From NCBI GenBank assembly GCA_036679605.1, contig JAZDCZ010000051.1:1-17751 (forward strand): DNA of 17,751 bases. The letters run 5' to 3'. Below, one piece after another: positions 1 through 17,751 of the stretch. The DNA comes from Gemmatimonadota bacterium (GTDB taxonomy: Bacteria > Gemmatimonadota > Gemmatimonadetes > Gemmatimonadales > GWC2-71-9). Under the pieces are notes generated by a model. The model was not told where the DNA came from. It did no database searches and worked only from the letters and a program-made list of their open reading frames with translations. Position 1 is the stretch's first letter; the number at the start of each line of letters is the position of its first letter. The position numbers were made by a program, and so were the translations under genes.

Positions 1-405
1 GACATCGATCATTGCCGGGTGGTAATCGCGACTCTGCCCGAGGAACTCTGCATCAGCGAGGCCACGCTATTGGCGCGCGACATCCGCGCCCTGGGGATAG
101 AACTCGCACCACCGGTCGTCAACGGCGTCTATCCCGAATTCGCCGATGCACGACAGCAGGCCTGGCTCGAACGGGAATCCTCCTCCCTCCAAGCTCTCTC
201 CAAGGATGCAACGATGTATCTGAGAATCTGCAAGCGACAGCGCGAGTTGATAGAGCGGTTCCGCCGCAACGTCGGCCCAGCCCTATGTGTACCGTTTTCG
301 TTCTCCGGCCAGGCTACGGAGGCTGTGGATCCGGCCGCCGGGGCCTTTCCTTCTGCGCTCGACGCTACGGCGCTGGTGGAAAAGATCTTCGAGGGGGCGG
401 TATGA
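1..405 (+). CDS. ArsA/Get3-family ATPase, C-terminal part (gene begins before the window)
   Basis: Frame 1 is open from base 1: DIDHCRVVIATLPEELCISEA...PPVVNGVYP matches the 'V(T)LPEE..(V)xE...VVN' C-terminal signature of tandem ArsA-like ATPases. Its TGA (403-405) overlaps the next ATG (ATGA). Confidence 0.75.
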   Translation, partial: DIDHCRVVIATLPEELCISEATLLARDIRALGIELAPPVVNGVYPEFADARQQAWLERESSSLQALSKDATMYLRICKRQRELIERFRRNVGPALCVPFSFSGQATEAVDPAAGAFPSALDATALVEKIFEGAV

Positions 406-1529
406 AATCAGCAGTCATCCGGTTATTGACAGACAAGAACCTGGTCGTGTTCGTCGGCGAAGGCGGCGTCGGCAAGACCTCCGTGGCAGCAGCAACCGCG
501 CTGGCCGCCGCCGGTCGCGGTCGCCGGGTGGCAGTCTTGACCGTCGATCCCGCTCCCCGCTTAGGGGACGCGTTGGGACTTGCAGACATTGACGGTACCG
601 CACGCGAGGTGCAGCTTCCCCAGGGATGCGCACCCGGCGGTTCCTTGACCGCTCAACGCCTGGACACCAAGCACACGTTTGACCGTATGGTCGAGTCGAT
701 GTCGCCAACCACTGAGGCAGCACGTGTCTTGTTGGCCAATCCCATTTATCAGGCGATCTCGACCTCGCTGGGAGGCAGCGAGCACTACATGACATTCCAG
801 AGGCTTTACGAACTCGTCGAAGAACACCGCTACGACATGCTGGTCATCGACACCCCGCCTGCGGCCCACGCTGCCGATCTTCTTTCCACACCGGTTCGTC
901 TCGGCGCTCTACTCGAAACCGGAGCGCCAGCCATCCTTGCCGACCCGGCGCGAATTCTTGCGCGCACCGGATCGAGGCTGGCCAAGAATACCGCGCTGGC
1001 GCTGATTTCGGTCATCGAGAAAGTCAGCGGGCTTTCCCTGACCGGGCAGATCTCGGAGTTCATGACCAGCTTCGAGGGAATTTTGGAAGACTTGAGGGAT
1101 CGTACGGAGAAGATCAACGCTCTTCTCCGAGCCAAACAAACGGCCTTCTGCCTCGTTACCCGGCCTCAGCCCGAACGGGTGTCCTCAACGCTGGCTTTCG
1201 CCACCGCACTTGCAAGGGATGGGATCGAGCTAGACGCATTGCTGGTCAACCGCGTCACACCCGAACACAGAACAGAGGACGAGGCCGGGCAAGCAGAGGC
1301 GCGATCCGCCTACCAGGAAGCACCGCCCGGCACCGAGCAAAGCGTCCTCGCAATGGAAACAGCGGTCAACGAGCTCAGAAGTCGCGAAACCGAGGCCCTG
1401 CGGGCTCTCGAGGACGGCCTCGTCGCCAACCGTGTCGATAGCGTGCCGATACAGCAGGTCAGTTCGCTGAATAGCGACGTAAGCGGTCTTCGCGAGCTCG
1501 CGGAACTCGCCGTCCTTCTGTTCGGCTGA
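402..1529 (+). CDS. ArsA/Get3-family (anion-transporting-type, SIMIBI) ATPase, second of a tandem pair
   Basis: Deviant P-loop GEGGVGKTS, switch I VLTVDPAPRL, YDMLVIDTPP and LLVNRV. Real start is most likely ATG 402 (ATGA coupling, GAGGGGG upstream), not the ORF-track start at 12. Confidence 0.88.
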   Translation: MKSAVIRLLTDKNLVVFVGEGGVGKTSVAAATALAAAGRGRRVAVLTVDPAPRLGDALGLADIDGTAREVQLPQGCAPGGSLTAQRLDTKHTFDRMVESMSPTTEAARVLLANPIYQAISTSLGGSEHYMTFQRLYELVEEHRYDMLVIDTPPAAHAADLLSTPVRLGALLETGAPAILADPARILARTGSRLAKNTALALISVIEKVSGLSLTGQISEFMTSFEGILEDLRDRTEKINALLRAKQTAFCLVTRPQPERVSSTLAFATALARDGIELDALLVNRVTPEHRTEDEAGQAEARSAYQEAPPGTEQSVLAMETAVNELRSRETEALRALEDGLVANRVDSVPIQQVSSLNSDVSGLRELAELAVLLFG

Positions 1530-1576
1530 ACCTGTTCGACTGAATGCCTTGTAGGGTTACAGTCGGGGTCAGCGTC

Positions 1577-2083
1577 TCAGCGTGTCGACTTCCGTTTGCG
1601 CTTCCGCGTCGCCGTCTTACGGGAACGTGACGAAGATTTGGCGGGCGACTTGCGCGACAATGCCGACTTGGCGGCAGCCTTCCGGGCTGTCCCTTTCGCT
1701 TTTGCGCGCGTCGAGCTAGCCCGTCCTGCTCGTCCGTTACCGCGGCCCGTTGCCGCGGCACCGAGATCATCGGTTAAATGGTCGAGCTTGCGGTTCAAAT
1801 TCATGAGCGCACCTTGCAACGCATCGAGCTTGGTCTTCAAGCTCCGGTAATCGCGCTTGGAAGGAAGGTTGGCCAAGGTCAGCAATACCTCGATGTTCTT
1901 GTCGACGCGGGCCTTGGTACGAGCCGCGCCCTGCATGGCTTCGCCGAGCACGTTACCGACACGCTCTACCCCAAGATAACTGCCGACGCGGTCGATCCCG
2001 ACCCGTCCGGCAACGTCGGACACCCAACCTAACATCGATTTGTCACTGTTTTGGTTGCCGGTGTGAACCGTTTGCTTCGCCAT
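1577..2083 (-). CDS. Phasin/PhaF-like (PHA granule-associated-type) coiled-coil protein with K/R/A/S-rich basic C-terminal tail
   Basis: Motif LANLPSKRDYRSLKTKLDALQGALMNLNRKLDHL resembles phasin/PhaE C-terminal coiled coils, followed by a histone-like tail (AKAKGTARKAAAK...RKRKRK). ATG at 2083 has a GGAGG SD upstream. Confidence 0.6.
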   Translation of the reverse strand: MAKQTVHTGNQNSDKSMLGWVSDVAGRVGIDRVGSYLGVERVGNVLGEAMQGAARTKARVDKNIEVLLTLANLPSKRDYRSLKTKLDALQGALMNLNRKLDHLTDDLGAAATGRGNGRAGRASSTRAKAKGTARKAAAKSALSRKSPAKSSSRSRKTATRKRKRKSTR

Positions 2084-2142
2084 GGGATCCCTCCTCGGAC
2101 CTCCGATGCCCACTCGCTAGGTCTGCCTTCTACGCGATGCTC

Positions 2143-2156
2143 CTGACCATGGTCAG
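2143..2156. promoter_or_regulatory. Perfect 14-bp palindrome CTGACCATGGTCAG, possible operator
   Basis: Seen directly in the divergent intergenic region, about 60 bp upstream of the phasin-like gene. Confidence 0.3.
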
Positions 2157-2368
2157 ACTAGCGCAAGCCATGGCCCAGGGGCAAACGCGGACGCACACTC
2201 CCGCGAGCGGTGGGCAGCGCCCTGAGACCGCCGGGGCCGGGTTCGCACCCACACGGTGCGGATTTCCAGCTACGGGTACAGTTGCCCGCTACGGCCGCGC
2301 TTGGTAGGTAGGGGTTCTTGCGCTGGCCGGCCTGTATCGTTGGCGCAAAGGAATTCGAAAAGGAATTC

Positions 2369-2792
2369 ATGGGAAAAAAGGCTAAAAAAACCCAAAGCGT
2401 TGTCATTGCACCGCTGATCGTCGCAACGATCTGCACCGGGCTGGCCCTCGCCACGGTCGCATCAGCCGAAACGACGACCTATTTCCGTCGCGATTCGCCC
2501 GAGTTTCGCGCCAGCGCGATCTTCGGAAAGAAGATGTTCCAGGCCTACCAGTGCGCCAAGTGTCACGCCATTCGCGAGGGCGAGGCGCTGACCGACGATA
2601 TCATCGCCCCCAATTTGATCCTGTCCAAGGAGCGCCTGCGCCCACGAAGACGACGACGGCAACCCAATCTACGACGATGCGGACGCCCACGAGCAGTTCA
2701 AACTGATCGTTGCCTTGCGGGACTATCTGATGGTACTCGGGACCGAGCAGGAACCGGGTGGCCGGCTGGCTCCGGTAAGCGCCGGCCAGTAA
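2369..2792 (+). pseudogene. Exported c-type cytochrome, disrupted by an apparent internal deletion/frameshift near 2643
   Basis: ATG 2369 (AAGGA SD), signal peptide ending ASA, haem motif CAKCH, then APNLILSKERLRP. The natural-looking tail (EDDDGNPIYDDADAHEQFKLIVALRDYLMVLGTEQEPGGRLAPVSAGQ*, TAA 2790-2792) lies in the +1 frame. The usual W..W...P...PGT.MP segment with the distal Met is absent. Confidence 0.72.
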
Positions 2793-2908
2793 TAGACCGA
2801 CATCGGTCTGGCCGGACGCCCGGACTCGCCGAACTCACCGATGCCGGCGTCAACCGCGGCCAATTCGGCCGTGGATGTCTTCGAGGGCCAAGCTGGCCTC
2901 GGTCCACA
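2754..2908 (+). repeat. Left copy of ~150-bp imperfect direct repeat bounding the haem-uptake island
   Basis: Hand alignment to 16115-16260 gives 128/146 identities plus a 9-bp insertion (2832-2840). It includes an identical core CATCGGTCTGGCCGGACGCCCGGACTCGCCGA (2801-2832 = 16162-16193). Confidence 0.95.
2850..2908 (-). pseudogene. Duplicated 3' remnant of the C69 peptidase gene
   Basis: Translates as WTEASLALEDIHGRIGRG*, versus WTEASSALEDIHGRIGRV* at the end of the intact 16202-17578 gene. Confidence 0.85.
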
Positions 2909-3133
2909 CCGGTTTCGTATACAGGCCGGTACCTCATGCGTCCCGCCAGCGCCGTCCTTGCTTTCCGCTGCAATCTCGACTTCGGCGCCAGGGCTTGCCA
3001 CCTTCCGAGACCTTCGCTGGGCTGCCGCAATACCGGCTGAGACGCTGCTCGTACCCCGGATATCCCCACTGTTTGTCGCATTCTCTTTAGCCGCCCCTTG
3101 ACAAGCGGCCGTGGGTAAGACCTATTTGACTTT

Positions 3134-3152
3134 GAGAATGAAAGTCAATATC
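3134..3152 (+). promoter_or_regulatory. Fur box
   Basis: GAGAATGAAAGTCAATATC matches the consensus GATAATGATAATCATTATC at 15/19 positions. It is an AT-rich patch at the head of a haem-uptake operon and overlaps a candidate TTGACT(3126)-N17-TATCAA promoter. A perfect TTGACA also lies at 3098-3103. Confidence 0.8.
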
Positions 3153-3362
3153 AATAGTCAACCGGAGCAAGGAACCCCCGATGGACCCGAGGATATCCGC
3201 TGCTTCTGCAACAGCCTACTTGCGCGCCGTCGTGGCGACACCATCGAGCTCAAGTGTAGGCGTTGCCGGCGCACGCTCGCGATCCGTCTGTCCGACCTTA
3301 CCGTCGAGATGGCCGAAACATCGGCGGCGCCCGGAGACAGTCGGAAAGGAAAGGAGGAGTAA
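3138..3362 (+). CDS. Small Com-like (phage Mu Com family-like) 4-Cys zinc-ribbon protein, putative regulator
   Basis: EDIRCFCNSLLARRRGDTIELKCRRCRRT fits the Com-type pattern RC..C..LLA....IEIKC.RC, here with a CxC first pair. Start is uncertain; the in-frame ATG 3138 lies inside the Fur box. Confidence 0.7.
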   Translation: MKVNINSQPEQGTPDGPEDIRCFCNSLLARRRGDTIELKCRRCRRTLAIRLSDLTVEMAETSAAPGDSRKGKEE

Positions 3363-3428
3363 GCCCATGAGTCCCTAAAACCCTAGGAAAATCTACTCTC
3401 CACGCAACAACACAACTCCATGCGGCCC

Positions 3429-3492
3429 GCGGATCCCTCAGCCCAGAGCCCGGAACCAAGCACTTAAAAGCTAACGGGTAAGAGGTATCCGC
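3429..3492 (+). promoter_or_regulatory. Predicted leader hairpin sequestering the Shine-Dalgarno of the 3493 gene
   Basis: GCGGATCCCTC (3429-3439) is complementary at 10/11 positions to GAGGTATCCGC (3482-3492; SD up to the ATG). Inner pairing GCCCG 3448-3452 with CGGGT 3475-3479. Confidence 0.5.
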
Positions 3493-4665
3493 ATGAAAAC
3501 AACAAAAAAAACCATCAGCGCCTATCGTGCGACGCTTGTCGCACTCATGCTCGGTTGCGCCGCGACGACCACCGGAACGGCCGTCGCGCATGCAGCCGTA
3601 CTGACCATCGACCAAGCTACAGCCGGCACTCTTATAGATGGCCTTCTCGACGGCTTTCCCGGTGTCGCAACGTTCGACGGCGTCGCCGACTTCGCGGGCA
3701 ACCCCTTGGCGGTCGCACTCAAAGACGGCGCCACCGAGGAGCGTGGGATCATCGAGTATCCGCTCGACACACTCACCGGGTTAAGCTCGAGCGATATCCA
3801 GAGCGCGACTCTCACCTGGAATATCGATGATGTGCTCTCGACCTTCGGTCCCGGCACCGACTTCGACGGAACCGCTGCCGAAACCGTCATACTGTTCGAT
3901 TACGCCGGTAATGGAAGCATCGACCTGTCCGATTTCCAAAACGTAGCCGGTGCCCCTCTGGCGGTCGTGGACACAACGCCGTTCGGAGTGATCACCGATG
4001 CAAGCCTGGCGGGTACGGGACCGCTGGTCTTCGAGGTCGACGTCACGGCGGCCATTCAAGCCCACCTCGATGCTGCCGACACACACATGGGCCTGGTGTT
4101 CGCGACCAACGACGATCAAAGCGGTACGTCGCTCGATGACCTCGGGGACGGGGGTGCAGGACCACCAGGAGTCAACGGTGCCTCCCTGCCCTTCGTGACC
4201 ATTGTCACCGTCACCGGCGAACCCCCCGTATTCGGCAAGAAGGAACTCAAGTGCCAGAAGGCAATCGCCAAGACCGCCGGCAAATTCGTCAAGACCGCTC
4301 AGAAGGAACTAGGCAAGTGCCTGAATTCGGTGTTGCTGGCGGTGTCAAAGGGCCAAGACCTCACCGCGGTCGAAGCGAAGTGTCGCGCCGGAATCGACGC
4401 GGCAGATCCTGCATCCAAGCTGGCGAAAGCAAACACCGGGGCAATCAACAAGATCGTCGGTTCTTGCAGCGATGTTTCGCCAGGGGACATCAACAGCCCA
4501 TGTGATGCCTTGGCGACGGACGCCAACGCTATGGCAACCTGCGTCGTCAGCGATCACACAAAACGTGTGGAGCAGATGGTACGCGCGGAGTTCGCCGATG
4601 GCTGTAACCTGCTCGGCGCTGTCAATCTAGACGACCAATTCACGGAGTTGTGCACCGCCCCGTAA
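3493..4665 (+). CDS. Secreted protein A: signal peptide + ~200-aa acidic beta-rich domain (DNRLRE/CBM96-like sandwich pattern) + 8-Cys helical C-terminal domain
   Basis: SD GAGGT; signal peptide ending AHA (LGC at residues 20-22 is a weak lipobox alternative). The N-domain (3625-4209) is 117/195 identical, without gaps, to 7038-7622. The C-domain begins KCQKAIAKTAGKFVK...LGKCL. Confidence 0.85.
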   Translation: MKTTKKTISAYRATLVALMLGCAATTTGTAVAHAAVLTIDQATAGTLIDGLLDGFPGVATFDGVADFAGNPLAVALKDGATEERGIIEYPLDTLTGLSSSDIQSATLTWNIDDVLSTFGPGTDFDGTAAETVILFDYAGNGSIDLSDFQNVAGAPLAVVDTTPFGVITDASLAGTGPLVFEVDVTAAIQAHLDAADTHMGLVFATNDDQSGTSLDDLGDGGAGPPGVNGASLPFVTIVTVTGEPPVFGKKELKCQKAIAKTAGKFVKTAQKELGKCLNSVLLAVSKGQDLTAVEAKCRAGIDAADPASKLAKANTGAINKIVGSCSDVSPGDINSPCDALATDANAMATCVVSDHTKRVEQMVRAEFADGCNLLGAVNLDDQFTELCTAP

Positions 4666-4684
4666 ACCGGTAACGGGCCCCGTC

Positions 4685-4710
4685 CCGGGGGAGGCTCACG
4701 CCTCCCCCGG
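4685..4710 (+). other. Strong intergenic stem-loop (11-bp perfect GC-rich stem, no U tract)
   Basis: CCGGGGGAGGC-TCAC-GCCTCCCCCGG between secreted protein A and the TonB-dependent receptor. Confidence 0.75.
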
Positions 4711-4740
4711 CCGCGGGCGGGTATCACAGGACGTTGTGCA

Positions 4741-6906
4741 GTGAAATCAAACGTAGGTCCGAGGCAGGTAGCAACAAGTCTCGCTGTGGCTGGAAGTATT
4801 TTGCTTATGCTCGTTGCAACGCCGGCTAACGGTGAGACGCCGAAACACGCCTCCACCGGAAAAGGAGAAAACGACTCTAATGCTCTACCCGACTACCGAA
4901 CGCCGACGGTTGTCGTGACAGGAACGAAGACCGAACATTCCGCGTCTGACGCGCCCGTGCCTACTCAGGTCGTTCCGCGTGCGGTCCTGGAAGAAACATC
5001 GAGTGACAACATCGAGTCGGTGATCAATCAGATTCCCGACATCCACGTGCGCCGTAATGATCAATTTACCCTCGGGGCCAGCACCGTGCGAATGCAGGGC
5101 CTCGGCCCCAACAAGGCTGCAATCGTTATCGACGGGCAGAGATTTCGGGGCGGTATCGACGGCGTAGTGGACCTTCGCGACATTCCGGTGGCCGGCATCG
5201 AGCAGATCGAGATCATCCGCGGCCCGTCGTCGAGCCTTTACGGAAGCGACGCAATGGCCGGTGTCATCAATATCCGTACCCGCCAAGGGTCCGAGCAGCC
5301 CGTTGTGAATCTGACGGTGGCCGGCGGTACGGCCGATAAACGCCTGGTCACTCTCACTCACGGCTATCGCATAGGCAACCTTAGCTATTTTGTAAGCGCG
5401 CAACATGATGCTGTCGCAATAGGAAAGCTGTTCGGTCCGATAAGCGCGCAGTTCGAAGGGGGCAGGGACGAAGACCTGCAGGAGCGCAACAGCGTTCGGG
5501 CTCGTCTAGACTATCGACTCGAACACCACCAATTCAACCTGACGACAGACTTTCTGCGCGAAGACAACCCGCTCAGTTTCAACGATAATCTGACCACGTC
5601 AGCCGGGTGGCAATGGCGCCCCGCACCTCTCTGGAACTTGGATGCCAGCGCCAGTTTCTATCGATTCACCCGCCAAAACGACCTCCCTGGTTTTGCCGAA
5701 GACGTGGAGTTCGTTCGCCCTTCAGGCGAATTGCGGGTGAGTCGAACGATCGGCGCTTTGCTGGCTGCCGACCACGTCTTGAGCTTCGGCGCGAGGCTCG
5801 ACTCACAGGAACTCGAATCGCCGGCGATGGTGCGGGGCTCAAACATGGAATTTACCTCGCCGGCCATCGACGCCGACACCTTCCAGTACACCGTTTTTGT
5901 ACAAGACGAGATACTCGCCGGAGCAAAGTGGAGTTTCGTCGTCGGTGCTAGTTTTGACGATCATAACCGCTTCGGCCTCGAAACGAGCCCGCGTTTGACG
6001 CTTACTTGGGATCCCTATGATTCGCTGCGCGTATCCGCGAGCGTCGGCCGCGGGTTCCGAGCGCCCGACCTTCTCCAGCTCTTCGATGTCGACGTAAACA
6101 ACGTCCTGGTGGTCGACGGGCGCGTTACGGGCTACGCGTTGATCGGCAACCCCGACCTTCAGCCGGAAACCGACTGGGGCTACACGATGTTCGCCGAGTA
6201 CACGGCGAGTGACGCTGTAGGTCTCACCTTCAATGCGTTCTGGCACGAGGTGGATGATCTAATTGCCAACAATCTCGCCTGTCCCACCCCTACGACCTGC
6301 AAAGACGGTTTCGACAATCCACTGCCCGATCTGATCGGTCCGATATTTTCTTTTGAGAACGTCGATGCCGCTCGCACACGTGGGTTCGATTTGAACCTAA
6401 AACTCGTACCGCCTCACGATTGGCTGAGGCGCGAAGGCCCTCACGCTCTCGAAATCAACCTGGGAATCGGTTTTCTCGATACGCAGAACCTCAGCGACAT
6501 CGCCGGTCAACGCGGCAAGGATCTACCGTTCAATCCCCCTCTCAGGTTTCTTCCGGCTGTAGTTTATCGCCAACGGATACTAGGAACCCAGATCCGTGTG
6601 TGGGGCGAGTTTTCCGAGCGCCAATTCAGCGATCTGGCCGCCTCTGATGCCGGCCGGATTGCACCGCATTGGCTGTGGAACTTCAAGTTGACTCAACGCC
6701 TGTCGGCGCTCGCAACCGCCATCGGGATCAAGAAACATGCGTGGCTCGATACCGTCAGCGTGTTCGTCGAAGGTGACAACATTTTCGACCAAAGCGTCGG
6801 TTTTTCCGGACCACGCGGGCGCATAGCACCGAACGCCAATTTCGTCTTTGGACTGCGATTCAATACCGAGATGGGTTCGCATCACACCACAGTGGGACAA
6901 CAATGA
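4741..6906 (+). CDS. TonB-dependent outer-membrane receptor (probable haem/haemophore receptor by context)
   Basis: Signal peptide, TonB-box-like TVVVTGTKT, plug motif IEQIEIIRGPSSSLYGSDAMAGVINIRT, GFRAP...GNPDLQPE and beta-barrel strands. Confidence 0.93.
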   Translation: MKSNVGPRQVATSLAVAGSILLMLVATPANGETPKHASTGKGENDSNALPDYRTPTVVVTGTKTEHSASDAPVPTQVVPRAVLEETSSDNIESVINQIPDIHVRRNDQFTLGASTVRMQGLGPNKAAIVIDGQRFRGGIDGVVDLRDIPVAGIEQIEIIRGPSSSLYGSDAMAGVINIRTRQGSEQPVVNLTVAGGTADKRLVTLTHGYRIGNLSYFVSAQHDAVAIGKLFGPISAQFEGGRDEDLQERNSVRARLDYRLEHHQFNLTTDFLREDNPLSFNDNLTTSAGWQWRPAPLWNLDASASFYRFTRQNDLPGFAEDVEFVRPSGELRVSRTIGALLAADHVLSFGARLDSQELESPAMVRGSNMEFTSPAIDADTFQYTVFVQDEILAGAKWSFVVGASFDDHNRFGLETSPRLTLTWDPYDSLRVSASVGRGFRAPDLLQLFDVDVNNVLVVDGRVTGYALIGNPDLQPETDWGYTMFAEYTASDAVGLTFNAFWHEVDDLIANNLACPTPTTCKDGFDNPLPDLIGPIFSFENVDAARTRGFDLNLKLVPPHDWLRREGPHALEINLGIGFLDTQNLSDIAGQRGKDLPFNPPLRFLPAVVYRQRILGTQIRVWGEFSERQFSDLAASDAGRIAPHWLWNFKLTQRLSALATAIGIKKHAWLDTVSVFVEGDNIFDQSVGFSGPRGRIAPNANFVFGLRFNTEMGSHHTTVGQQ

Positions 6907-7886
6907 TGATCAGACAAAGGAGGCGACTCCCTTTCCTAACCCCGTATCGGCACGTCTTTATAATAGCGGCGCTTACACTGTGTATTCTCGGCTCGAGCGC
7001 CGACGCCGAGGAATTCGTGATTGGCGCCAACTCCCCCGGTACAGCCTTTGACGCCTTGATCGACGGCTTCCCCGGGCTAGCGTCGATGGACGGTATCGCC
7101 GATTTCGGCGGCAACAGGTTGGGTATCGCACTGAAAACGCAGGTTACCGAAGAGCGCGCCCTCCTCGAATTTTCACTGGATGCGCTGGCCGGTCTTACTG
7201 CACCCGACATCGAAACAGCGACGCTGACGTTCAACATTGACGATGTACTCACAACGTTTGGTCCGGGCACCTCATTCGACGCTACAGCGGCGGAGAGAAT
7301 CCTACTGTTCGCCTACGCGGGAAACGGAGTCATTGAGTTGGGCGATTTTGAAGAAGCGGTAGGGCCACCGTTCGCCGTAGTGGATACTTCCACCGTCGGC
7401 GTGATTGCCGACGCCTCATTGACCGTCTCCGGGCCCTTGTTTTTTTCAGTTGATGCGCACCCGGTACTCGCAAACCGCTTGATCGCCGGAGATACACACC
7501 TCGGTATTATTTTTGTGACCGACGACGATCAAACCGGGACCTCGCTCGACGATCTCGGCAACGGCGCCGGCGGTCCGCCCGGCATCGGCGGCTCGATCCT
7601 GCCCTTTCTCACTATCACGACGCGAATCGTTACGACCACGACCAGCACGACGATCAGTACGACAACGACCACGACGATGGAGTCGGCAATGTGTGGCGAC
7701 GCAAATTTGAACGGTAGGATCACGGCTTCCGACGCATTGATAGTTCTGCGTATTGCCGTCGGCGTGGGGTCGTGTCGGGCTCAGGTTTGCGACGTCGACG
7801 CGAACGGTACGATCTCGGCTAGTGATGCACTGCGGGTGCTCCAGGTGGCGGTGGGGCTACCGGTGGAGTTGAACTGCGTTGGTTAA
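6903..7886 (+). CDS. Secreted protein B: paralogue of protein A N-domain + Thr-rich linker + Cys-flanked dockerin-like (duplicated EF-hand-like) domain
   Basis: ATGA overlap with the receptor stop; signal peptide ending ADA; shared motifs DGFPG, NIDDVLxTFGPGT, YAGNG and GTSLDDLG. Poly-Thr linker, then CGDANLNGRITASDALIVLRIAVG / CDVDANGTISASDALRVLQVAVG (7692-7886). Confidence 0.88.
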   Translation: MMIRQRRRLPFLTPYRHVFIIAALTLCILGSSADAEEFVIGANSPGTAFDALIDGFPGLASMDGIADFGGNRLGIALKTQVTEERALLEFSLDALAGLTAPDIETATLTFNIDDVLTTFGPGTSFDATAAERILLFAYAGNGVIELGDFEEAVGPPFAVVDTSTVGVIADASLTVSGPLFFSVDAHPVLANRLIAGDTHLGIIFVTDDDQTGTSLDDLGNGAGGPPGIGGSILPFLTITTRIVTTTTSTTISTTTTTTMESAMCGDANLNGRITASDALIVLRIAVGVGSCRAQVCDVDANGTISASDALRVLQVAVGLPVELNCVG

Positions 7887-7952
7887 GAGTGAACCGCGAC
7901 GTTGAGTTTGCCGACAACGATGAGGAGCACCTAGCTCTGTATGGAGGAAAAA

Positions 7953-9026
7953 ATGAAAACACAGAGCAAACGCGCACCTGAAACACTGTCGCCCGGTGGC
8001 TTGTATGAAGCGTGGGCCGAGCTGCAACGCTATGAGCCCGGCGTACGTGCCCACGATGCGGCTGAGGCGCTCGAGGTTAGCGAAGCCGATTTGGTAGCAA
8101 GTACGTGCGGAGATACCGCTACACGGCTGGACGGTCCTTGGGACGAGATGCTGGCTGGGCTCCATCGAATGGGCCAGTTAACCACAGTAACACGGAATGA
8201 GTGTGCCGTTCACGAGACCGTCGGCCGTTACGGCCGTGTACATGTCATGGGTGGGAACCTCTTCGTCCGAGGTGTTGGAATCGACCTGCGTTTGTTAACC
8301 GGCAAGTGGCATGTGGGATTCGCGGTTCGCAGGTCGACGGAAGCGGGTCCGCGTTACAGCCTGCAGTTTTTCGACCGCCACGGGATCGCCGTACACAAGA
8401 TCTACCTGGGAGAGGAGGTACGCCAAGATGCGTACGAGAGCCTCGTCAACCGCCATGCGCACGATGACCAGAGCACCGCCCAAAACACGGATGCCCCCGA
8501 GAGTCGAACCGCCGACCATCCTGATGGCCAAGTCAATGTGGATACGCTTCGAACCCGGTGGGCGTCGCTCGAGGACACACACGACTTCACCCCGATGCTC
8601 GCAGAACAAGGCGTCTCGCGTCTGCAAGCACTGCGTTTGGCCGGCAACGATTTCGCTCGCCGACTCCCCCCACCGGCACTCCGCCGCCTGATGCACGGAG
8701 CCCACGCAGCAGGCATCCCCGTTATGGTATTCGTTCCTAACTCCGGGGCGGTTCAGATCTCCACCGGGCCCGTCGGTCGCGTACGCTTGACGAACGGATG
8801 GACAAACGTAACGTCACCGACATTCACTCTTCACGTCCGTGACGACCGTATCGATTCTGTATGGGTTGTACAAAAACCTACCGTTGACGGAGTCGTGACA
8901 TCCCTCGAACTGTATACCGCCGACGGTGAGAACGTCGTGCTCTTTTACGGCGAGCGAAATCCCGGACACGCCGAGTCGCTCGTTTGGCGTGATCTCGTTG
9001 CATGGGTGGAACGCGGCAAACGATGA
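7953..9026 (+). CDS. hemS: Haemin-degrading/haem-trafficking protein, HemS/ChuS/HmuS family
   Basis: Two-repeat HemS architecture: DAAEALEVSEADLV, TRNECAVHE, IDLRL, SLQFFDRHGIAVHKIYL, DTHDF (haem His), VMVFV.N.GAVQI.TG and WVVQKPTVDGVVTSLELY. ATG 7953 follows a GGAGG SD (ATG 7941 is the alternative). Confidence 0.92.
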   Translation: MKTQSKRAPETLSPGGLYEAWAELQRYEPGVRAHDAAEALEVSEADLVASTCGDTATRLDGPWDEMLAGLHRMGQLTTVTRNECAVHETVGRYGRVHVMGGNLFVRGVGIDLRLLTGKWHVGFAVRRSTEAGPRYSLQFFDRHGIAVHKIYLGEEVRQDAYESLVNRHAHDDQSTAQNTDAPESRTADHPDGQVNVDTLRTRWASLEDTHDFTPMLAEQGVSRLQALRLAGNDFARRLPPPALRRLMHGAHAAGIPVMVFVPNSGAVQISTGPVGRVRLTNGWTNVTSPTFTLHVRDDRIDSVWVVQKPTVDGVVTSLELYTADGENVVLFYGERNPGHAESLVWRDLVAWVERGKR

Positions 9027-9946
9027 AAACGTCGAGCATACTCGAGAAGCGCGCGTTTATCTCAGCGCTGCGAAGATGTCTGCGGTCAGTCGCGTTGATC
9101 GCTTTCCTACTGGTCTCGGTGTCGGGGCGCGTGAATGCCGCGGAGAACACACGCATTGTTTCGATCGGAGGCGCCGTAACCGAGACGATTTTCGCATTGA
9201 AAGCCGGGCATCTTGTAGTCGGAGTGGATACCACGAGCGGCTGGCCGAACGAGGTGACAAGGTTGCCGCAAGTCGGCTACAAGAGAACTCTCTCCGCCGA
9301 AGGAATTCTCTCACTAGCGCCTTCTCTGGTCATCGCATCCGGTGACGCGGGACCGCCGCAAGCTCTTGCCAGTCTGGCCGATGCCGGCGTGCGCACTGTA
9401 TCGATACCCTTGGCCCTATCGGTAGCGGCAGCACAAGGAAATATCCTACGTATCGGGGAACTGCTCGGCGCGAACGAGCAGGCCACCGCACTAGCCAGGA
9501 TCCTTGCCGAGGAAGTGACATCGGCGCACAGTCGCGTCTCGAGAGAGAATAGGGCGCCGCGTGTTCTGTTCGTGGTCAATCCCCCGGGTCTGGGGTTTGC
9601 GCTCGCTGCCGGACGCAACACGGCGGCCGATACGATGATTCGGCTTGCCGGCGGCACCAACGTAATCGACGCGTTCGAGGGTTACCGGCCGCTAACCGGC
9701 GAAGCCGCGGTCGCGTCTTCGCCAGGAATCATTCTGGTAACGCGGGGGACTTTACAACGCACCGGTGGAGTGGATCGTTTTCTCGAAGTTGCAGCGCTTC
9801 GTCTGACCCCCGCCGGGCGCAGGCACAGAGTAAAGGAAATACCCAACTACGCTCTCGATTTTGGCCCGCGAACGGGTCGTGCATTGCGCGAATTGGTCGA
9901 TTTATTGTACGCACCGCTCGAAAATCCCGAGGAGTCACCGTCGTGA
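9023..9946 (+). CDS. hmuT: Haem ABC transporter periplasmic binding protein
   Basis: RIVSIGGAVTETIFAL, VGVDTTS, QVGYKRTLSAEGILSLAP (haem-ligating Tyr motif) and FGPRT; ATGA coupling with hemS. Confidence 0.92.
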   Translation: MKTSSILEKRAFISALRRCLRSVALIAFLLVSVSGRVNAAENTRIVSIGGAVTETIFALKAGHLVVGVDTTSGWPNEVTRLPQVGYKRTLSAEGILSLAPSLVIASGDAGPPQALASLADAGVRTVSIPLALSVAAAQGNILRIGELLGANEQATALARILAEEVTSAHSRVSRENRAPRVLFVVNPPGLGFALAAGRNTAADTMIRLAGGTNVIDAFEGYRPLTGEAAVASSPGIILVTRGTLQRTGGVDRFLEVAALRLTPAGRRHRVKEIPNYALDFGPRTGRALRELVDLLYAPLENPEESPS

Positions 9947-10995
9947 GACCTTCCGCGTGGTTACTACCGACACTGGCTGTGTTGCTGGTATTGGTGGCGC
10001 TGACCTCGATGACCGTCGGAGCGGTGGAAACCTCAGCCGGTCAAGTGATCACGATTTTGGCCCGGCCGTTTGGCTTCGAATTGCCTTGGCCATCGACTCA
10101 TACCCAACAGGCCGTCGTCCTATACCTACGTCTGCCTCGCGTCATCCTCGGCTCGTTGGTCGGCGCTGCCCTCGCAGTCGCGGGCGCGGCCACACAGGGC
10201 TTGTTCCGAAACCCACTCGCCGACCCGGGTTTGATCGGTATTGCGGCAGGTGCCGCTCTGGCCGTCGTCACGACGATCGTGATTGGGGATCAAGTGCCGG
10301 TGATGAACTCGTCTGTCGCCGCCCTGCTGAACCGTCTCGCAGTTCCGACAGCGGCTTTTGTCGGCGCACTGGCAACAACGTTCATCGTCTATCGGTTATC
10401 GCTGGTATCGGGCCGCACCGTGGTCGCGATGATGCTGCTCGCAGGGATCGGTATCAACGCACTCGCCGGCTCGGCGACTGGATTGCTCGTTTACCTGGCC
10501 GACGACCAAGAGTTACGATCGGTTACGTTTTGGACCTTGGGAAGCCTAGCCGGAGCTTCATGGCCGTCTCTGTCGGTGGCCGGACCCATCATGTTCATCA
10601 CGGTGCTCGTGTTGCCGCGCTTCGGTTTGCCACTCAATGCCATGGTCCTGGGCGAGTCGGCGGCAACTCACCTAGGGATCGACGTACAGCGCACCAAGCG
10701 CATGCTTGTCACACTCGTCGCCCTGGGGGTGGGAGCGGCTGTATCGGTAGCAGGCATGGTAGGATTCATCGGGCTAGTCGTACCTCATTTGCTTCGCCTC
10801 ACCGTCGGGCCTGACCATCGTCGCCTTCTTCCCGCGTCAGCCCTGTTGGGCGCTAGCCTTACCATAGGAGCCGACTCGGCCGCTAGAACACTGGTTTCTC
10901 CGGCGGAACTGCCACTGGGCATTCTCACGGCACTTTGCGGCGCACCCTTCCTGCTCTGGTTGCTTCGTAGCGAACGGCGACAGGGGTATTTATGA
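9943..10995 (+). CDS. hmuU: Haem ABC transporter permease (FecCD family)
   Basis: LRLPRVILG...QGLFRNPLADPGLIG, GESAATHLGIDV and GFIGLVVPHLLR; GTGA overlap. Confidence 0.93.
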   Translation: MRPSAWLLPTLAVLLVLVALTSMTVGAVETSAGQVITILARPFGFELPWPSTHTQQAVVLYLRLPRVILGSLVGAALAVAGAATQGLFRNPLADPGLIGIAAGAALAVVTTIVIGDQVPVMNSSVAALLNRLAVPTAAFVGALATTFIVYRLSLVSGRTVVAMMLLAGIGINALAGSATGLLVYLADDQELRSVTFWTLGSLAGASWPSLSVAGPIMFITVLVLPRFGLPLNAMVLGESAATHLGIDVQRTKRMLVTLVALGVGAAVSVAGMVGFIGLVVPHLLRLTVGPDHRRLLPASALLGASLTIGADSAARTLVSPAELPLGILTALCGAPFLLWLLRSERRQGYL

Positions 10996-11837
10996 GCCTT
11001 ACAGTCGTTAACGGTACGGCCACACGGCTAGGAAAATCGGTTCTCGACAACGTTTCGGTTGAGATCACGCCGGGACGGGTATTAGCGATCATTGGTGCCA
11101 ACGGCGCCGGGAAATCGTCACTCATCAAGGTAGCCGCAGGCGACCTGAAGCTCGCGCGCGGCAGCGTGACACTCGGTGGTAAACCGCTGGCCGACTGGTC
11201 GATCAAACAACGCGCGCAGGTTCGCGCGGTACTTCCGCAGACCAGCGACGCCGCGATGGGCTTTCGGGTTTCGGATTTGGTTTTGCTCGGACGAATTCCG
11301 CACAACGGCGGCGTCGCAACCTGCAGTGATCACTCAATTGCTGCCCGCTGCTTGGAAGCGGTTGACGCATCTCACCTGGCGGGGCGTGTGTATTCTACAT
11401 TATCAGGCGGGGAGCAACAGCGGATCCATATAGCACGCGTGTTCACGCAGATTTGGGTGCCGTCGCAACAGAAACCCTGCCGTTATTTGCTTCTCGACGA
11501 ACCCACCACGGCTCTCGACTTGTGTCACCAGCACGAAATCTTGGGACTCGTCCGTAGGCTGGCTCGAAAAAACGTCGGGGTGGCTGTGGTACTACACGAC
11601 TTGAATCTGGCAGCTCGTTACGCCGACCGTATCTGCTTGCTGGATCACGGTCGCAGCGTTTCGATCGGGACTCCGGACGAAGTGTTGAACGCCAAGACAA
11701 TCGCCGGCGCATTGGGTATCCGCGTTGCTGTTCGCCGTCACCCGGATTTCGACTGCCCGCTCGTTCTTTACCTCGGCAAGACCGGATCGCGACTTCCGCC
11801 CACGCACCAGAATACTATGGAGGAAATAGCAGTATGA
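10992..11837 (+). CDS. hmuV: Haem ABC transporter ATP-binding protein
   Basis: Walker A GANGAGKS, signature LSGGEQQR, Walker B LLLDEPT and H-loop VLHDLNLA. Confidence 0.93.
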   Translation: MSLTVVNGTATRLGKSVLDNVSVEITPGRVLAIIGANGAGKSSLIKVAAGDLKLARGSVTLGGKPLADWSIKQRAQVRAVLPQTSDAAMGFRVSDLVLLGRIPHNGGVATCSDHSIAARCLEAVDASHLAGRVYSTLSGGEQQRIHIARVFTQIWVPSQQKPCRYLLLDEPTTALDLCHQHEILGLVRRLARKNVGVAVVLHDLNLAARYADRICLLDHGRSVSIGTPDEVLNAKTIAGALGIRVAVRRHPDFDCPLVLYLGKTGSRLPPTHQNTMEEIAV

Positions 11838-12055
11838 ATCACTCAAGCGAACTTCAAGCGCACGGCCAACGCATCGTAGCGCGATCGAAAGTGTGCGAGG
11901 TGCAATGTTGTGGTTGTGGGATGATCCATGTGTTGATCGGCTCGATTACACTGCATCTCACACCCAACGCGTTTAAATCCGTAAGCGACACTATGGGAAA
12001 CGCGGTGCGTCGCTTAACCAAGACCGACGAGCAGCCCCCCGAATTTCTTTGCTAA
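11834..12055 (+). CDS. Small Cys/His-rich hypothetical protein (73 aa)
   Basis: GGAGG SD; ATGA overlap with hmuV and TAATG overlap with exbB; motif CEVQCCGCGMIHVLIGSITLHL. Confidence 0.72.
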   Translation: MNHSSELQAHGQRIVARSKVCEVQCCGCGMIHVLIGSITLHLTPNAFKSVSDTMGNAVRRLTKTDEQPPEFLC

Positions 12056-12750
12056 TGCTTGACGCTTCGCTGCTTGGTGCGCTGGAGATTTTCGAGCGTG
12101 GCGGCGTACTCATGCCCGTCTTGCTATTGTTATCGGTGATTGCAATGGCAACCGCGCTGTTAAAGCTGTACCAGTTCCACCGCTACGCTCTTAGGCGCTT
12201 GGACTTCATCAACCCAGCCGTTGCCATGATCCGCTCCGGCGATACCGAGGCCGCGTTGAAAGTCCTGGCTGGCACGCACAATCCGATAGCGCGCGCTTTG
12301 GAGGCAGGCGGGCTCACGCTGGATGCTTCGGAAAGTGGAACCCCGGTCGACCCAAAAGCGGAGATGATTAGGGTCGGTAATTGTCAACTGCGTGAACTCG
12401 GGACTTGGCTGCGAGTATTGTCCTCCGTAACACAAGTCAGTCCGATGCTCGGTTTACTTGGTACGGTCGGCGGGATGATTTCAGCTTTCGGAAAACTGGA
12501 AGAGGCCGGTTCCTTGGCGAACCCGGCGCTTTTGTCGGGGGGAATATCGGCGGCTTTGTTGACGACCGCGTCTGGCTTGGTGATCGCCATACCGTCGATG
12601 ATCGCATTGCAGTACTTCGAAGGAGAAATTGACCGTGTCCGCGAGGCCATGCAGGACGCTGGTGCGCGCATCCTGAGTGGCATTCGTACGGCAGACGGTT
12701 TCGTCGAGCGCGGTAAGAGAGCATTACAGGCCGTAGGTCATGGAGCTTGA
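12055..12750 (+). CDS. exbB: MotA/TolQ/ExbB proton-channel protein
   Basis: GGVLMPVLLLLS, SPMLGLLGTVGGMISAF and LSGGISAALLTTASGLVIAIP; ATG 12055 overlaps the upstream TAA. Confidence 0.92.
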   Translation: MLDASLLGALEIFERGGVLMPVLLLLSVIAMATALLKLYQFHRYALRRLDFINPAVAMIRSGDTEAALKVLAGTHNPIARALEAGGLTLDASESGTPVDPKAEMIRVGNCQLRELGTWLRVLSSVTQVSPMLGLLGTVGGMISAFGKLEEAGSLANPALLSGGISAALLTTASGLVIAIPSMIALQYFEGEIDRVREAMQDAGARILSGIRTADGFVERGKRALQAVGHGA

Positions 12751-13141
12751 ACGTAGATCGAAGCTGGCGACTAAATTGGAACTGGCACCGCTTGTGGATG
12801 TCGTGTTTCTGTTGCTGATATTTTTTTTGCTAACCAGCGTGTATGTCGTTCCTCAGTCCGTAGAGGTGAATCTGCCGGTATCGGCGAACGCCAAATCGCC
12901 TTTGAGGGCGACGATCACAGTAAGCTTGGCTACCGATCGCTCCATTACCGTCGAAGGTAAACGAGTAGATTGGTCCGCGTTGCGTGCCCGCGTCGAATCA
13001 ATCCTGCAGCCCAATTCCAAGCAAACGATAGCCCTGCATGCGAGCGCAGATGTCTCCGTACAAGACCTGCTAGCAGTGATGGACGTATTGCGCGCCGCCG
13101 GTGGCCGCAACATCGCTCTGGCCGCCCGGCCTGAGGCCTGA
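12740..13141 (+). CDS. exbD: ExbD/TolR biopolymer transport protein
   Basis: LAPLVDVVFLLLIFFLLTS, VNLP and VMDVLRAAG. Confidence 0.92.
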   Translation: MELERRSKLATKLELAPLVDVVFLLLIFFLLTSVYVVPQSVEVNLPVSANAKSPLRATITVSLATDRSITVEGKRVDWSALRARVESILQPNSKQTIALHASADVSVQDLLAVMDVLRAAGGRNIALAARPEA

Positions 13142-13145
13142 GGGC

Positions 13146-13883
13146 TTGCGGATCACCCGACGACATCGAGTAGCCGCCCTTGCGGGCGCCCTCGCCATCC
13201 ATGTCGTCGCGTTGGCCGGCCTGGGCGCGATACGGTCGAAACACCCCATTGTTCCTGCCCCGCACATGGTCATTTCGATCCAGAAAGTGAGCCTTCGTGA
13301 GAGCGCACCGCTAACCCACATCACGTCGCCGCAGTCCCCCGTCGAAGACAGTACGGCGAAACCGGCCACGTCGAAAAGTATCCCACCTGCCGCTGCTGTC
13401 CCGAAGCGCACGCATACCGTCGCCAAGCCCCTGGAGCGCACCCATGTGACAAAACCGGCACGAACAGCGACATCTTCCAAACCCGAGCGGGATAGAAAAG
13501 CTGATGCCGACGACAAAACGAATATCGCCAAAACCGAATCCTCCAGCCGCATACGTCCGCAGTCGAACTCGGCCGTGACGCAGAACGAAGTGGTACACGC
13601 ACGCTATGTTCAGCTTCTTGCCGCGTGGTTGGACAAACACAAGTACTACCCACGACGCGCCGTGCGACTCGGGTTGGAAGATACGGTGATCGAACGTATC
13701 CGTATAGCGCGGGACGGCTCGGTGATTGCCCACAAACCTTCACGCCCAGCCGCGTACTCCATTTTCACCTCATCGGTAGAGGAAATGGTCGAACGTGCGG
13801 ATCCGTTTCCACCCATTCCCGATCAACTGACTGTCGACACGCTCGAGTTCGAGGTGCCGGTGCGGTTTACGCTTCCAGACTAA
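13146..13883 (+). CDS. tonB: Energy transducer TonB
   Basis: N-terminal TM with ALAIH, P/K/T-rich linker, C-domain KYYPRRAVRLGLED...ADPFPPIP...VPVRF. TTG 13146 is the probable start (ORF open from 13101). Confidence 0.85.
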   Translation: MRITRRHRVAALAGALAIHVVALAGLGAIRSKHPIVPAPHMVISIQKVSLRESAPLTHITSPQSPVEDSTAKPATSKSIPPAAAVPKRTHTVAKPLERTHVTKPARTATSSKPERDRKADADDKTNIAKTESSSRIRPQSNSAVTQNEVVHARYVQLLAAWLDKHKYYPRRAVRLGLEDTVIERIRIARDGSVIAHKPSRPAAYSIFTSSVEEMVERADPFPPIPDQLTVDTLEFEVPVRFTLPD

Positions 13884-13969
13884 CCGGAAGTTCCCACCGT
13901 CCGCCAGAGGTTCATCGTCGGTCGGTTCATGGCACGATACAACAGTTCCACTTTCCTTTTCTGGTCGAA

Positions 13970-14482
13970 TTATCTGTTTGCGATCATACGGTCGCGCAAT
14001 GCTTCGAATTTCTCTATTTGCGCGGGGATCAATCGCCGTTCTTCATCGCGGCCAAGATAAATCTTGAACATGCATCCCCCATCCCTATTATAGAATTGAA
14101 CCGAACGAGTGTCGCTCGAAAACAGCTTGCGGGAAACGAAGCTGATAGAGGCGCAGTCGTCGGCCTTCACGTGCCCGCCGATCGGCTTGCCCTGCAGATT
14201 GTAGAAGCCGTGGGCCATCTCGCCTTCGGGAACGCTACCCTTGACTTCCAGAATGAGGTCGGTCGTGTTTACAATAAAGGTGACCTCACCCCACGTTGCG
14301 ATCTCTAACATCACCCGCATGAATTCATCACCACCGATGGTCGAGACTTCTCTTTCCGGTAGGCAGGAAATTACATCGGCTGTTGTGACATCGTGCTGCT
14401 CGGCAATCTGCTCCAGGACCGCGCCTGGATTCTGCGCCAGCGACGCGGCAACGGCTTCACGTGTTTCTGCGGTCAAGTTCAC
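13970..14482 (-). CDS. hutX: Cytosolic haem carrier HutX/ChuX
   Basis: WGEVTFIVNT.D.ILE.KG..P.G..AHGFYNL.G..IGGH, SVQFYN.DG.CMFKIYLGRDE.R.L; adjacent to hutW. Confidence 0.92.
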   Translation of the reverse strand: MNLTAETREAVAASLAQNPGAVLEQIAEQHDVTTADVISCLPEREVSTIGGDEFMRVMLEIATWGEVTFIVNTTDLILEVKGSVPEGEMAHGFYNLQGKPIGGHVKADDCASISFVSRKLFSSDTRSVQFYNRDGGCMFKIYLGRDEERRLIPAQIEKFEALRDRMIANR

Positions 14483-14500
14483 GGTTTTTTCCTCATCATC

Positions 14501-15901
14501 TCACTTCAACAGAGAGTAGGACTTTCGTTTTTCGTTGATATTCTGATTGAGCCATTCCAGTAGATTCTGGGTCATGGTGACTTGCCAGAAGCGACCCGCA
14601 ATAGTGAGATCGACCCAGTCGGCCTTGCGGTTCAAGAGTCCCGCATACTGCCATTGCTCAAGGAGCGGCCCAATAATCGCATCCAGATCGAGCCCTGTGC
14701 GACGCTCCAGCTCTACCGCCAGACTAGTAAGATTGAGCCGCCCGCGCTCCATGCTCCCCTTGATGGGATCAAACAGTCCACGATGTTCGGATTGGTTCAA
14801 AAGGTGGGCCATCGGGTTTTCCCCTCGTTCTATCTGCGATCGGTAGGCCTTGAGATCGCCGTTGATGCGATAAGAGTAACCGTTCAAGGAGCCACCCGCG
14901 CCCGAGCCGAAAGCAAGGCAGTCAGCGCCTTTCTTCGCTTCCCGATTGTAGATATTGCGCTCTCGCGCGGTGCGCCTCCAATGGGTCGTCGAAATGGTTT
15001 CCCAGCACGCGTGCTCCAGCAGCTCGGAGCCACGTTCATAATAGGCGCCGTATTCGGTCTTTGCGGTAGGGGCAAATTTACCCTTCTCGATGGCGGTGAG
15101 CAGCGGCGTACCTGGTATGAGATTGAGGGCGTAAAGATCGACGCCGTCAAGGCCGATCTCGATGGCCGTGCGTACATCGGCCTCCCACATCTCCATCGAC
15201 TGATTAGGAAAACCGTAGATCAGGTCGATGATGACGGCCCCCTTGTCGACGGCGACCAGCTCTTCAAGGAATGCAATCACTTTCTCGCGCGACGCCTTGC
15301 GGCCCATTGAGCGGCGCAGTTCTTCATGAAAGCTCTGGACCCCGATAGACACCCGGTTGGCACCCGCGTCGAACACAGCCCTCATCTTGTCGCTCGTAAA
15401 ACTGTGGACGCGGCCCTCGATGGTAATCTCGCAGTCGGGTGCAAGCGGCAAATTCTTGCGCGTGGCTTGCACTAGCCGGGCAAGGTCGCGAGCCGATAGG
15501 GCGCTTGGTGTGCCACCGCCGAAATAGACCGCATGCACAGGACCTTGTGATTGATAGGGCAGGTCGGCTTCACGGCGTAGATTTTCGATCACGGCGTCCG
15601 TGTACGGCGTACCATTCTCATCGCGCCACCGGCTTTGGTAGAAGCCGCAGAACAGGCAGTGGTTCGCGCAAAAGGGGACATGCAGATAGGCAACGCTCTT
15701 GCCCCGGCGCGGCGTTGCGGTGATCTCTCGCCAGATTGACTCGCGCTCTTCTTCGGGCACAGGCGATATGCCGATAGAGGGATGCACAACCTTTCTCCCG
15801 TTGAAGGCATTCGCCAACGGGGTGCCATCCACGCTGGCAAAGAAATCCTCCAAGCTGCTCGGCGCCGCCATGCCGCCGTGGACCGGATGATGACGTTTCA
15901 T
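14501..15901 (-). CDS. hutW: Anaerobic haem-degrading radical SAM methyltransferase ChuW/HutW (HemN-like)
   Basis: YLHVPFCANHCLFCGF (CxxxCxxC), VYFGGGTPS, CEITIEGRV, ERNIYN and GRFWQVTM; paired with hutX. Start uncertain: ATG 15901 chosen, ORF open to TTG 15961. Confidence 0.9.
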   Translation of the reverse strand: MKRHHPVHGGMAAPSSLEDFFASVDGTPLANAFNGRKVVHPSIGISPVPEEERESIWREITATPRRGKSVAYLHVPFCANHCLFCGFYQSRWRDENGTPYTDAVIENLRREADLPYQSQGPVHAVYFGGGTPSALSARDLARLVQATRKNLPLAPDCEITIEGRVHSFTSDKMRAVFDAGANRVSIGVQSFHEELRRSMGRKASREKVIAFLEELVAVDKGAVIIDLIYGFPNQSMEMWEADVRTAIEIGLDGVDLYALNLIPGTPLLTAIEKGKFAPTAKTEYGAYYERGSELLEHACWETISTTHWRRTARERNIYNREAKKGADCLAFGSGAGGSLNGYSYRINGDLKAYRSQIERGENPMAHLLNQSEHRGLFDPIKGSMERGRLNLTSLAVELERRTGLDLDAIIGPLLEQWQYAGLLNRKADWVDLTIAGRFWQVTMTQNLLEWLNQNINEKRKSYSLLK

Positions 15902-16114
15902 CGGGAATTGCGCTTCGGCTTTAGTTCCGTTCCCACCAAACACGCTCAGAGCCTTCCGCAAAACCGGGTGCGATTCTAAAACGGTTCATCGCATTGGACA
16001 TCAAGACTTCGCTTCGGATTACCAAAAATAACGAGCCGGCCAGGTGATGCATGCCGTTCTACACAGACAAACGCGTGAAACACGATTGTTAGCATACAGA
16101 CTTGGGATACACCA

Positions 16115-17578: not shown

Positions 17579-17751
17579 AGCAGCTATGGCAAGTAGCTAC
17601 ATCACAGGGTTCGGTTTCGCGTTCGGCCAGTGCCCGCCGCCGCTCCAACCAGAGATAATCACGATCTATATGGTGGTCGATGAAATCCCATGGGAAAAGT
17701 GCATCGTGGGGGTAGCTTGCGTACACGAAGCGATCCGGGTCGATGGCTACG

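Follow-up and report, generated by a model that had tools for sequence, protein, structure and literature searches.

The window analysed here is a 17,751-nucleotide stretch (positions 1 to 17,751, forward strand) of contig JAZDCZ010000051.1 in the Gemmatimonadota bacterium assembly GCA_036679605.1. It carries an operon in which the gene for a TonB-dependent receptor (4741-6906) is flanked on both ends by genes for two related exported proteins, all on the plus strand. The upstream gene (3493-4665) encodes protein 1, whose 390 amino acids comprise a signal peptide, an acidic beta-sandwich domain resembling CBM96/DNRLRE modules (3595-4209) and a C-terminal helical domain with eight invariant Cys (4216-4662). 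The receptor that follows is CirA/BtuB-like, with a FRAP-NPxL loop that lacks His and an invariant Tyr465 (codon 6133-6135). Protein 2, of 327 amino acids (6903-7886), has a start codon that overlaps the receptor stop (ATGA), and in it a signal peptide and a second copy of the acidic domain (7008-7622) are joined through a Thr-rich linker to a type I dockerin (7695-7838; PF00404 above cut-off, E 1.7e-6). Downstream on the same strand lie hemS, for a haem-degrading/binding protein (7941-9026; PF05171, E 2e-70), the hmuT-hmuU-hmuV haem ATP-binding cassette (ABC) transporter (9002-11837; PF01497, PF01032, NF010068 above cut-off) and exbB-exbD-tonB (12055-13883; PF01618, PF02472, PF03544). Convergent on the operon, hutX and hutW for anaerobic haem breakdown occupy the minus strand (13970-15961; TIGR04108 and TIGR04107 above cut-off), and HemS, HmuV, HutX and HutW all pass curated cut-offs. 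The best Fur-box-like operator in the window (3134-3152, plus strand; 15/19 matches to a Fur consensus) lies upstream of the operon. The best explanation for this arrangement is that the exported proteins are dedicated partners of the intervening receptor in a Fur-controlled haem-uptake operon.

The 195-residue stretches encoded at 3625-4209 and 7038-7622 align without gaps and share 117/195 identities (BLASTP E 7e-72), exactly the count given in the original prediction for this locus. Every motif it named is found in both copies, and the Tyr of YAGNG and the His of DTH are indeed the sole Tyr and His common to them. At codon positions 1, 2 and 3 the two copies are 69, 79 and 36% identical in DNA; silent sites are thus saturated and the protein conserved, which argues for an old duplication under purifying selection rather than an assembly echo. 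Each domain is about 21 kDa, free of cysteine and strongly acidic, with 2 and 5 Lys plus Arg residues and net charges of -27 and -22 for copies 1 and 2. By eye, both N-termini resemble a Sec signal peptide (basic, hydrophobic, AxA), as had been proposed, and among homologues the AxA motif is present in 89/120 N-termini and a lipobox-like motif in 4/120. Not described previously is the difference in C-terminal modules, an 8-Cys helical domain in protein 1 and a Thr linker plus dockerin in protein 2. The 8-Cys domain, delimited with a 62-sequence alignment and modelled at a predicted local distance difference test (pLDDT) score of 96, has weaker copies on four other contigs of the same assembly and falls in unnamed Atlas clusters in Binatota/Myxococcota. 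A fold search with it gave no clear match (best Z 8.0), and no relatives were found among longer proteins, though that test was weak. We considered this domain as a haem site and did not adopt it because its His (36/62) and Tyr (59/62) are not invariant, the window copy having Phe at the Tyr position; perhaps it serves as a lineage-wide surface anchor or secretion tag.

Searches of the acidic domain against Pfam (E up to 1) and NCBIfam (E up to 0.1) returned no match for either window protein, and of two PDB sequence searches the first gave a best E of 0.037 and the second nothing. Relatives are nonetheless numerous: 134 among 90% clusters of similar length, 60 among 50% representatives, and 251 once the profile is extended over the C-terminal parts. 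Those with names are mostly from Candidatus Binatia, the remainder being unclassified apart from a few labelled Polyangiaceae, Myxococcales or Deltaproteobacteria; the L013 genome turned up in the class sample that contains the Binatia genomes. In a quick tree the two window copies sit apart from each other within the family, and the dockerin, long-tail and Cys-repeat types share one branch (support 95); the paralogue types are therefore old. The domain profile found no third copy in the window's own genome (G000).

The taxonomic label of the window deserves caution. Among 401 genomes of its nominal class, the domain occurs only in G000 and in one weak match (E 1.9e-4). At 6.7 Mb, G000 exceeds a genome of the same genus (3.7 Mb) and looks like a mixed bin. 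It holds about 20 small dockerin-bearing contigs of differing 4-mer content, and in a two-cluster split the window contig groups with small dockerin-bearing contigs (7/7 checked). Taken together, these observations make it probable that the contig strayed into the assembly from a Binatia-like organism.

We assembled 60 loci encoding the domain from two scans (22 + 38), which include the near-duplicates L039/L040, L046-L048, L008/L030 and L013/L014. A common receptor type is visible in 35/60; the remaining 25 end about 1 kb or less past the last domain match. Of 401 genomes sampled from the class that includes the Binatia-labelled record G401, 26 have the domain, with one to three copies each, and 27 the receptor type, always as a single copy. 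These 27 are the same 26 genomes plus G612, whose receptor is a contig-edge fragment truncated by the contig start. With 26/26 domain genomes carrying the receptor, the tie between them goes well beyond the adjacency seen in the window, from which it was first proposed. We attach no statistic to this co-inheritance because only three candidates per genome were scored in the receptor search and the genomes are kin and many of them incomplete. The tallies of 26, 27 and, below, 21 each count G584, which is flagged unpublished; L012, identical to it in length and positions, seems to be the same record. Dropping G584 lowers each tally by one with no other effect. Among the 21 genomes with an HmuT-type binding protein, 7 lack both the domain and this receptor. 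Two receptors read from these domain-free genomes pass TIGR01785 (442 and 447 bits), both with His in the FRAP loop, and the domain hidden Markov model (HMM) had no match in four loci fetched from them. In this small sample, classical receptors occur without the domain, and it is the His-free receptor that accompanies it. Taken across the loci, the proteins form a real, unnamed family, and in haem loci this family and one unnamed receptor type keep strictly to each other.

The receptor itself is unusual. It matches CirA (E 6.5e-57) and BtuB (3e-39) better than PhuR (3.7e-24), and is also closer to the first two than to ShuA. None of 30 receptors has His in the FRAP-NPxL loop and there is no conserved plug His, but in 30/30 a Tyr stands four residues ahead of the G-NPxL motif, where CirA has Cys. 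PhuR of Pseudomonas aeruginosa likewise has Tyr four residues before its P/G-NPxL motif, and in the PhuR cryo-EM structure this residue, Y529, is the haem ligand (PMC10418163). The PhuR loop is 19 residues long, a length found in 5/30 receptors; unlike PhuR, the window receptor is nearer CirA/BtuB overall and falls under the TIGR01785 cut-off.

The genes around the domain and receptor point to the cargo. Of the 35 receptor loci, 16 encode an HmuT/PhuT-type binding protein, 16 an IsdE/Lmo2184-type one and none both; of the other three, two break off just past the receptor and the third has a receptor of reduced length. The HmuT type has an invariant GY motif and a profile matching hemin-binding proteins at E 1e-91, and the IsdE type has two invariant His at the positions of the IsdE MEP and HG motifs (E 1e-25). 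Haem degraders occur in 13/16 HmuT-type loci (HemS in 4, haem oxygenase in 4, IsdG-like in 5), and three unrelated haem-degrading families and two binding-protein classes alternate beside a constant domain-receptor core. We scanned for Fur sites in 45 loci, those with 700 or more bases of upstream sequence, and left out the 15 that had less. A Fur-like site (at least 13 matches to the consensus, within 1.5 kb upstream) was present in 39/45, against 0.086 expected from G000. The haem-uptake setting that was read from the window is therefore borne out by the binding proteins in 32/35 receptor loci, the Fur-like boxes and the hem, hmu and hut genes, and haem is most likely the cargo. The domain shares one mark of haemophores, its place in a haem-uptake locus that is under iron regulation and includes a TonB receptor. 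Cobalamin was rejected as cargo, since a search of the window and six loci turned up no cobalamin riboswitch and the binding proteins are of haem type.

A different cargo would be non-haem iron, with Fe3+ or a chelate bound by the domain carboxylates and imported by the receptor, and with the haem genes as mere co-regulated neighbours. Many carboxylates are invariant, the receptor sequence is closest to CirA and BtuB, FeoAB or imelysin genes lie near some loci, and siderophore lid proteins such as XusB exist (PMC13142918). This proposal must explain why a haem-type binding protein from either of two separate classes stands beside the receptor in 32/35 loci, and why the window operon has no other outer-membrane receptor; we regard it as improbable.

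Several neighbours in these loci are worth recording. The IsdE/Lmo2184-type protein at L022:14692-15543 serves a TonB system and has His in place of the Met of IsdE; proteins of this type are known from Gram-positive bacteria. In 14/16 IsdE-type loci the ABC ATPase gene is followed by a member of an unnamed 200-amino-acid family with the motif NVWWHNxxFHG (L022:17381-18016 and 13 other loci). This family is absent from all HmuT-type loci, in which genes for HemS, haem oxygenase or IsdG-like proteins occur instead, and it may be a new haem-degrading enzyme. It drew one weak match to PNPOx and none in the PDB; profiles of the two unnamed families of this neighbourhood found nothing significant in the PDB. 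One locus adjoins a gene (L035:1470-2585) that has its own Fur-like site and whose product contains an HtaA haem-binding domain (PF04213).

We next consider the structure of the domain. An AlphaFold2 model built from a 140-row alignment was of high confidence (pLDDT 97, predicted template modelling score 0.92). Its top match was the chondroitin-binding module 8WAB, both by Foldseek (E 4.7e-6) and by VIA-align (Z 13.9, root-mean-square deviation (rmsd) 3.5, 163 residues aligned). Second in VIA-align was the alginate-binding CBM96 7VBO (Z 12.3, rmsd 3.5, 158 aligned), and further down were TGF-beta-family prodomains (Z 9-10) and chains of Bacteroidota beta-barrel assembly machinery (BAM) complexes (about 8.5). 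The top ESM Atlas feature match (0.96) agrees with a CBM96/DNRLRE-like fold. The earlier suggestion of a CBM96/DNRLRE-like sandwich therefore holds at the level of the predicted fold, where 8WAB and 7VBO stand clear of the next unrelated rows, but not at the level of family. Neither the window proteins nor 22 homologues scanned at E up to 0.01 match the CBM96/DNRLRE models (PF24517, NF033679), identity is 12-16%, and the surface is acidic. The window domain further differs in its long Asp/Phe/Pro loop insertions and in its restriction to haem loci, next to a single type of TonB receptor.

These fold matches raise the possibility of a structural or glycan role, in which the domain would be a cap that folds or shields the receptor, or a carbohydrate-binding tether to haem-rich material. 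The best matches are alginate- and chondroitin-binding modules, and BamH has the same fold and forms a surface canopy on an outer-membrane complex (PMC12611786). CBM96 grips alginate with Lys/Arg of a basic groove (PMC9971899), whereas the window domains, with so few basic residues, have no such groove; the same paper describes one structural Ca2+ in 7VBO, held via Asp. The absence of a CBM96 or DNRLRE model match also argues against this role, as does the finding that the domain is on no glycan-degrading enzyme among the 22 members scanned, and we rate it as rather improbable.

The candidate ligand residues constrain how haem could be held. The Tyr and His shared by the two copies had been put forward as possible axial ligands, which would make the domain a classical haemophore with a Tyr137 and His198 pair. 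Tyr137 is the sole possible ligand kept in more than 90% of sequences (130/140), and it is Phe or Trp in the other 10. His198 is not supported as a ligand, being His in only 80/140, Phe in 31 and Ala in 16, and no conserved His/Tyr/Met pair of axial ligands is found. A second His, His135, tends to exclude His198 (both in 12, one only in 24 and 68, neither in 36 of 140), and Tyr137 with His at either position accounts for 97/140. This exclusion is not independent evidence because the His pattern tracks paralogue type, and 13/140 domains contain no His at all. Tyr137 also precedes G-D/N-G-x-V/I-x-L-x-D, which is like half a calcium loop, and weak calmodulin matches cover it (E 0.8). By topology, Tyr137 and His198 lie at the less conserved end of the sandwich, with 7/60 positions at least 90% conserved against 38/99 at the opposite, loop end. 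A mutual-information analysis had an effective depth of 69, too shallow to place either residue. A classical Tyr/His haemophore is accordingly quite improbable. Invariant across the 140 sequences are instead D53, D66, R84, E88, D112, D113, D147, S213, D215 and several Gly/Pro, with F118, P120, F124 and P56 retained in at least 136/140. By strand alternation these residues fall mostly on Asp- and Phe/Pro/Gly-rich loops at the better conserved end.

From these features we propose a mechanism. The proteins would be exported and then retained at the surface through interchangeable C-terminal modules (8-Cys helical domain, dockerin or Cys-rich repeats). Several Ca2+ on the invariant Asp residues may stiffen a loop crown at one end of the sandwich, and this crown could enclose the porphyrin in a pocket lined by Phe and Pro, with no His as ligand, by analogy with HusA, which is reported to bind haem porphyrin without iron ligation (PMC6173696). 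Haem would then pass to the invariant loop Tyr of the receptor, much as is proposed for lid proteins (PMC13142918); HmuTUV would import it and HemS/HutW release the iron. Our proposal is that the receptor would depend on its partner because it is without the histidines of classical haem receptors. A haem-capture role by one route or another is probable. This specific form, a His-free, calcium-shaped surface partner with putative binding and surface location, is the one we favour tentatively, at somewhat less than even likelihood.

Several observations weigh against this proposal. The window receptor scores 123 bits on the haem-receptor model TIGR01785, far under the cut-off of 316.85 (three members of the receptor type score 123, 126 and 128). 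The fold matches listed include no protein that binds haem. The placement of the conserved loops at one end was derived from strand alternation in predicted secondary structure, not from coordinates. The acidity of the domain (family median net charge -21) is unfavourable to haem propionates unless calcium screens it. Locus L106 has the domain, receptor and TonB genes, yet no haem ABC match within 19 kb, and the 26 co-inheriting genomes are kin, so that a linked block may be inherited whole. A predicted complex of the receptor and domain with haem and three Ca2+ scored 0.03, short of the mark of 0.32, and speaks neither for nor against the proposal.

Some of these observations would suit a domain that holds no haem, in which the acidic, calcium-shaped surface docks haemoproteins, for example basic cytochromes or globins of lysed cells, and the receptor Tyr strips the haem. 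Docking is in keeping with the strong net negative charge and with a conserved face lacking a conserved iron ligand; the one to three diverged paralogues per locus could serve different carriers, and the fold relatives include protein-binding domains (TGF-beta prodomains, BamH). Near-invariant loops in proteins only 40-70% identical suggest one fixed small ligand or partner rather than varied proteins, however, and we consider docking unlikely. The proteins might also remain periplasmic, where they would buffer or chaperone haem on its way from the receptor to HmuT. A signal peptide by itself delivers a protein only to the periplasm, there is no conserved lipobox, and the window is without a dedicated secretion gene. 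Thr/Pro-rich stalks, dockerins and disulfide-rich tails are typical of surface proteins, though, and loci with classical receptors and the same HmuT manage without these proteins, which leaves a periplasmic role very doubtful. The surface partner stays our preferred reading.

The remaining features of the window concern its operon head and boundaries. First in the operon is a small gene for a Cys-x-Cys...Cys-x-x-Cys zinc-ribbon protein (3111-3362, plus strand, start codon uncertain), with relatives near the operon head in 36/60 loci. Two relatives have weak zinc-ribbon Pfam matches and the window copy has none; by eye it is like phage Mu Com, without such a Pfam match. Its position is that of HemP/HmuP in proteobacterial haem operons, and its product is possibly a regulator. 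Directly before this gene, L049:1840-2226 and 5 other loci encode a small exported CxCCPPSDC protein with no Pfam match. A 73-amino-acid Cys-containing open reading frame (ORF) at 11834-12055, also without a Pfam match, lies between hmuV and exbB and overlaps both; its relative in L106 sits upstream of the zinc-ribbon gene. No sigma-70 promoter signal exceeded shuffles.

The haem block, 13.4 kb in length, is bounded by an imperfect direct repeat of about 155 bp (2753-2908 and 16114-16260; 83% over 156 bp). The right copy includes the 3' end of a C69 peptidase gene, and the left copy duplicates the final 19 codons of that gene just past a cytochrome c-like ORF (about 2366-2703) whose reading frame decays into nonsense. 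In sequencing run X1, one contig at depth 16 spans 2803-16191, and variant contigs at depth 35-48 carry the flanks only. From these bounds and depths, the haem block looks inserted and strain-variable; no integrase was seen in the window.

Most known haem-capture proteins come from pathogens and gut bacteria, and the view of how haem is bound has shifted with every new fold among them (HmuY, HusA, HphA). We see an even chance that the present proteins define a new class of haem capture, in which a calcium-stiffened sandwich like that of CBM96 and TGF-beta prodomains acts as a His-free haemophore or haemoprotein dock. Its obligate partner would be a His-free, CirA-like receptor that turned to haem separately from the ShuA/HasR/PhuR line, and the hosts would be uncultured, free-living Binatia. 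The same loci point to a possible new haem-degrading enzyme family. If so, haem capture gains a fold so far linked to sugars and growth-factor prodomains, haem receptors gain a second, separate origin, and a haem-scavenging route of soil and water bacteria comes into view. Among titles and abstract openings, with few subscription papers covered, we found no paper on this subject for haem in Binatia/Binatota, dockerins in Binatota or CBM96 with haem, and, among those listed for DNRLRE, none on haem.

We judge that the family would work like a haemophore or lid protein, yet it appears to belong to no such family tested: HasA, HmuY, HusA, HphA, NEAT and HtaA gave no sequence match and have no entry among the fold matches listed, the best of which are to another family. 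XusB, BtuG and SusD, the lid proteins, are lipoproteins of other folds and have other cargo; binding of the window domain to its receptor is putative. The lid proteins are likewise inherited one-to-one with a specific receptor, and capture and hand-over are proposed for them (PMC13142918). In HmuY-HmuR and HusA-HusB of Bacteroidota, HasA-HasR and HphA-HphR, too, iron controls a haem locus in which the gene for an exported protein adjoins that of a TonB receptor. HusA binds porphyrin without ligating iron (PMC6173696), as is proposed for the domain described here. The window domain is unrelated in sequence to HmuY, HusA (which is helical), HasA and HphA, and is set apart from them by its lack of a conserved His or Met, its one to three paralogues per locus and its swappable C-terminal modules in place of a lipid anchor.

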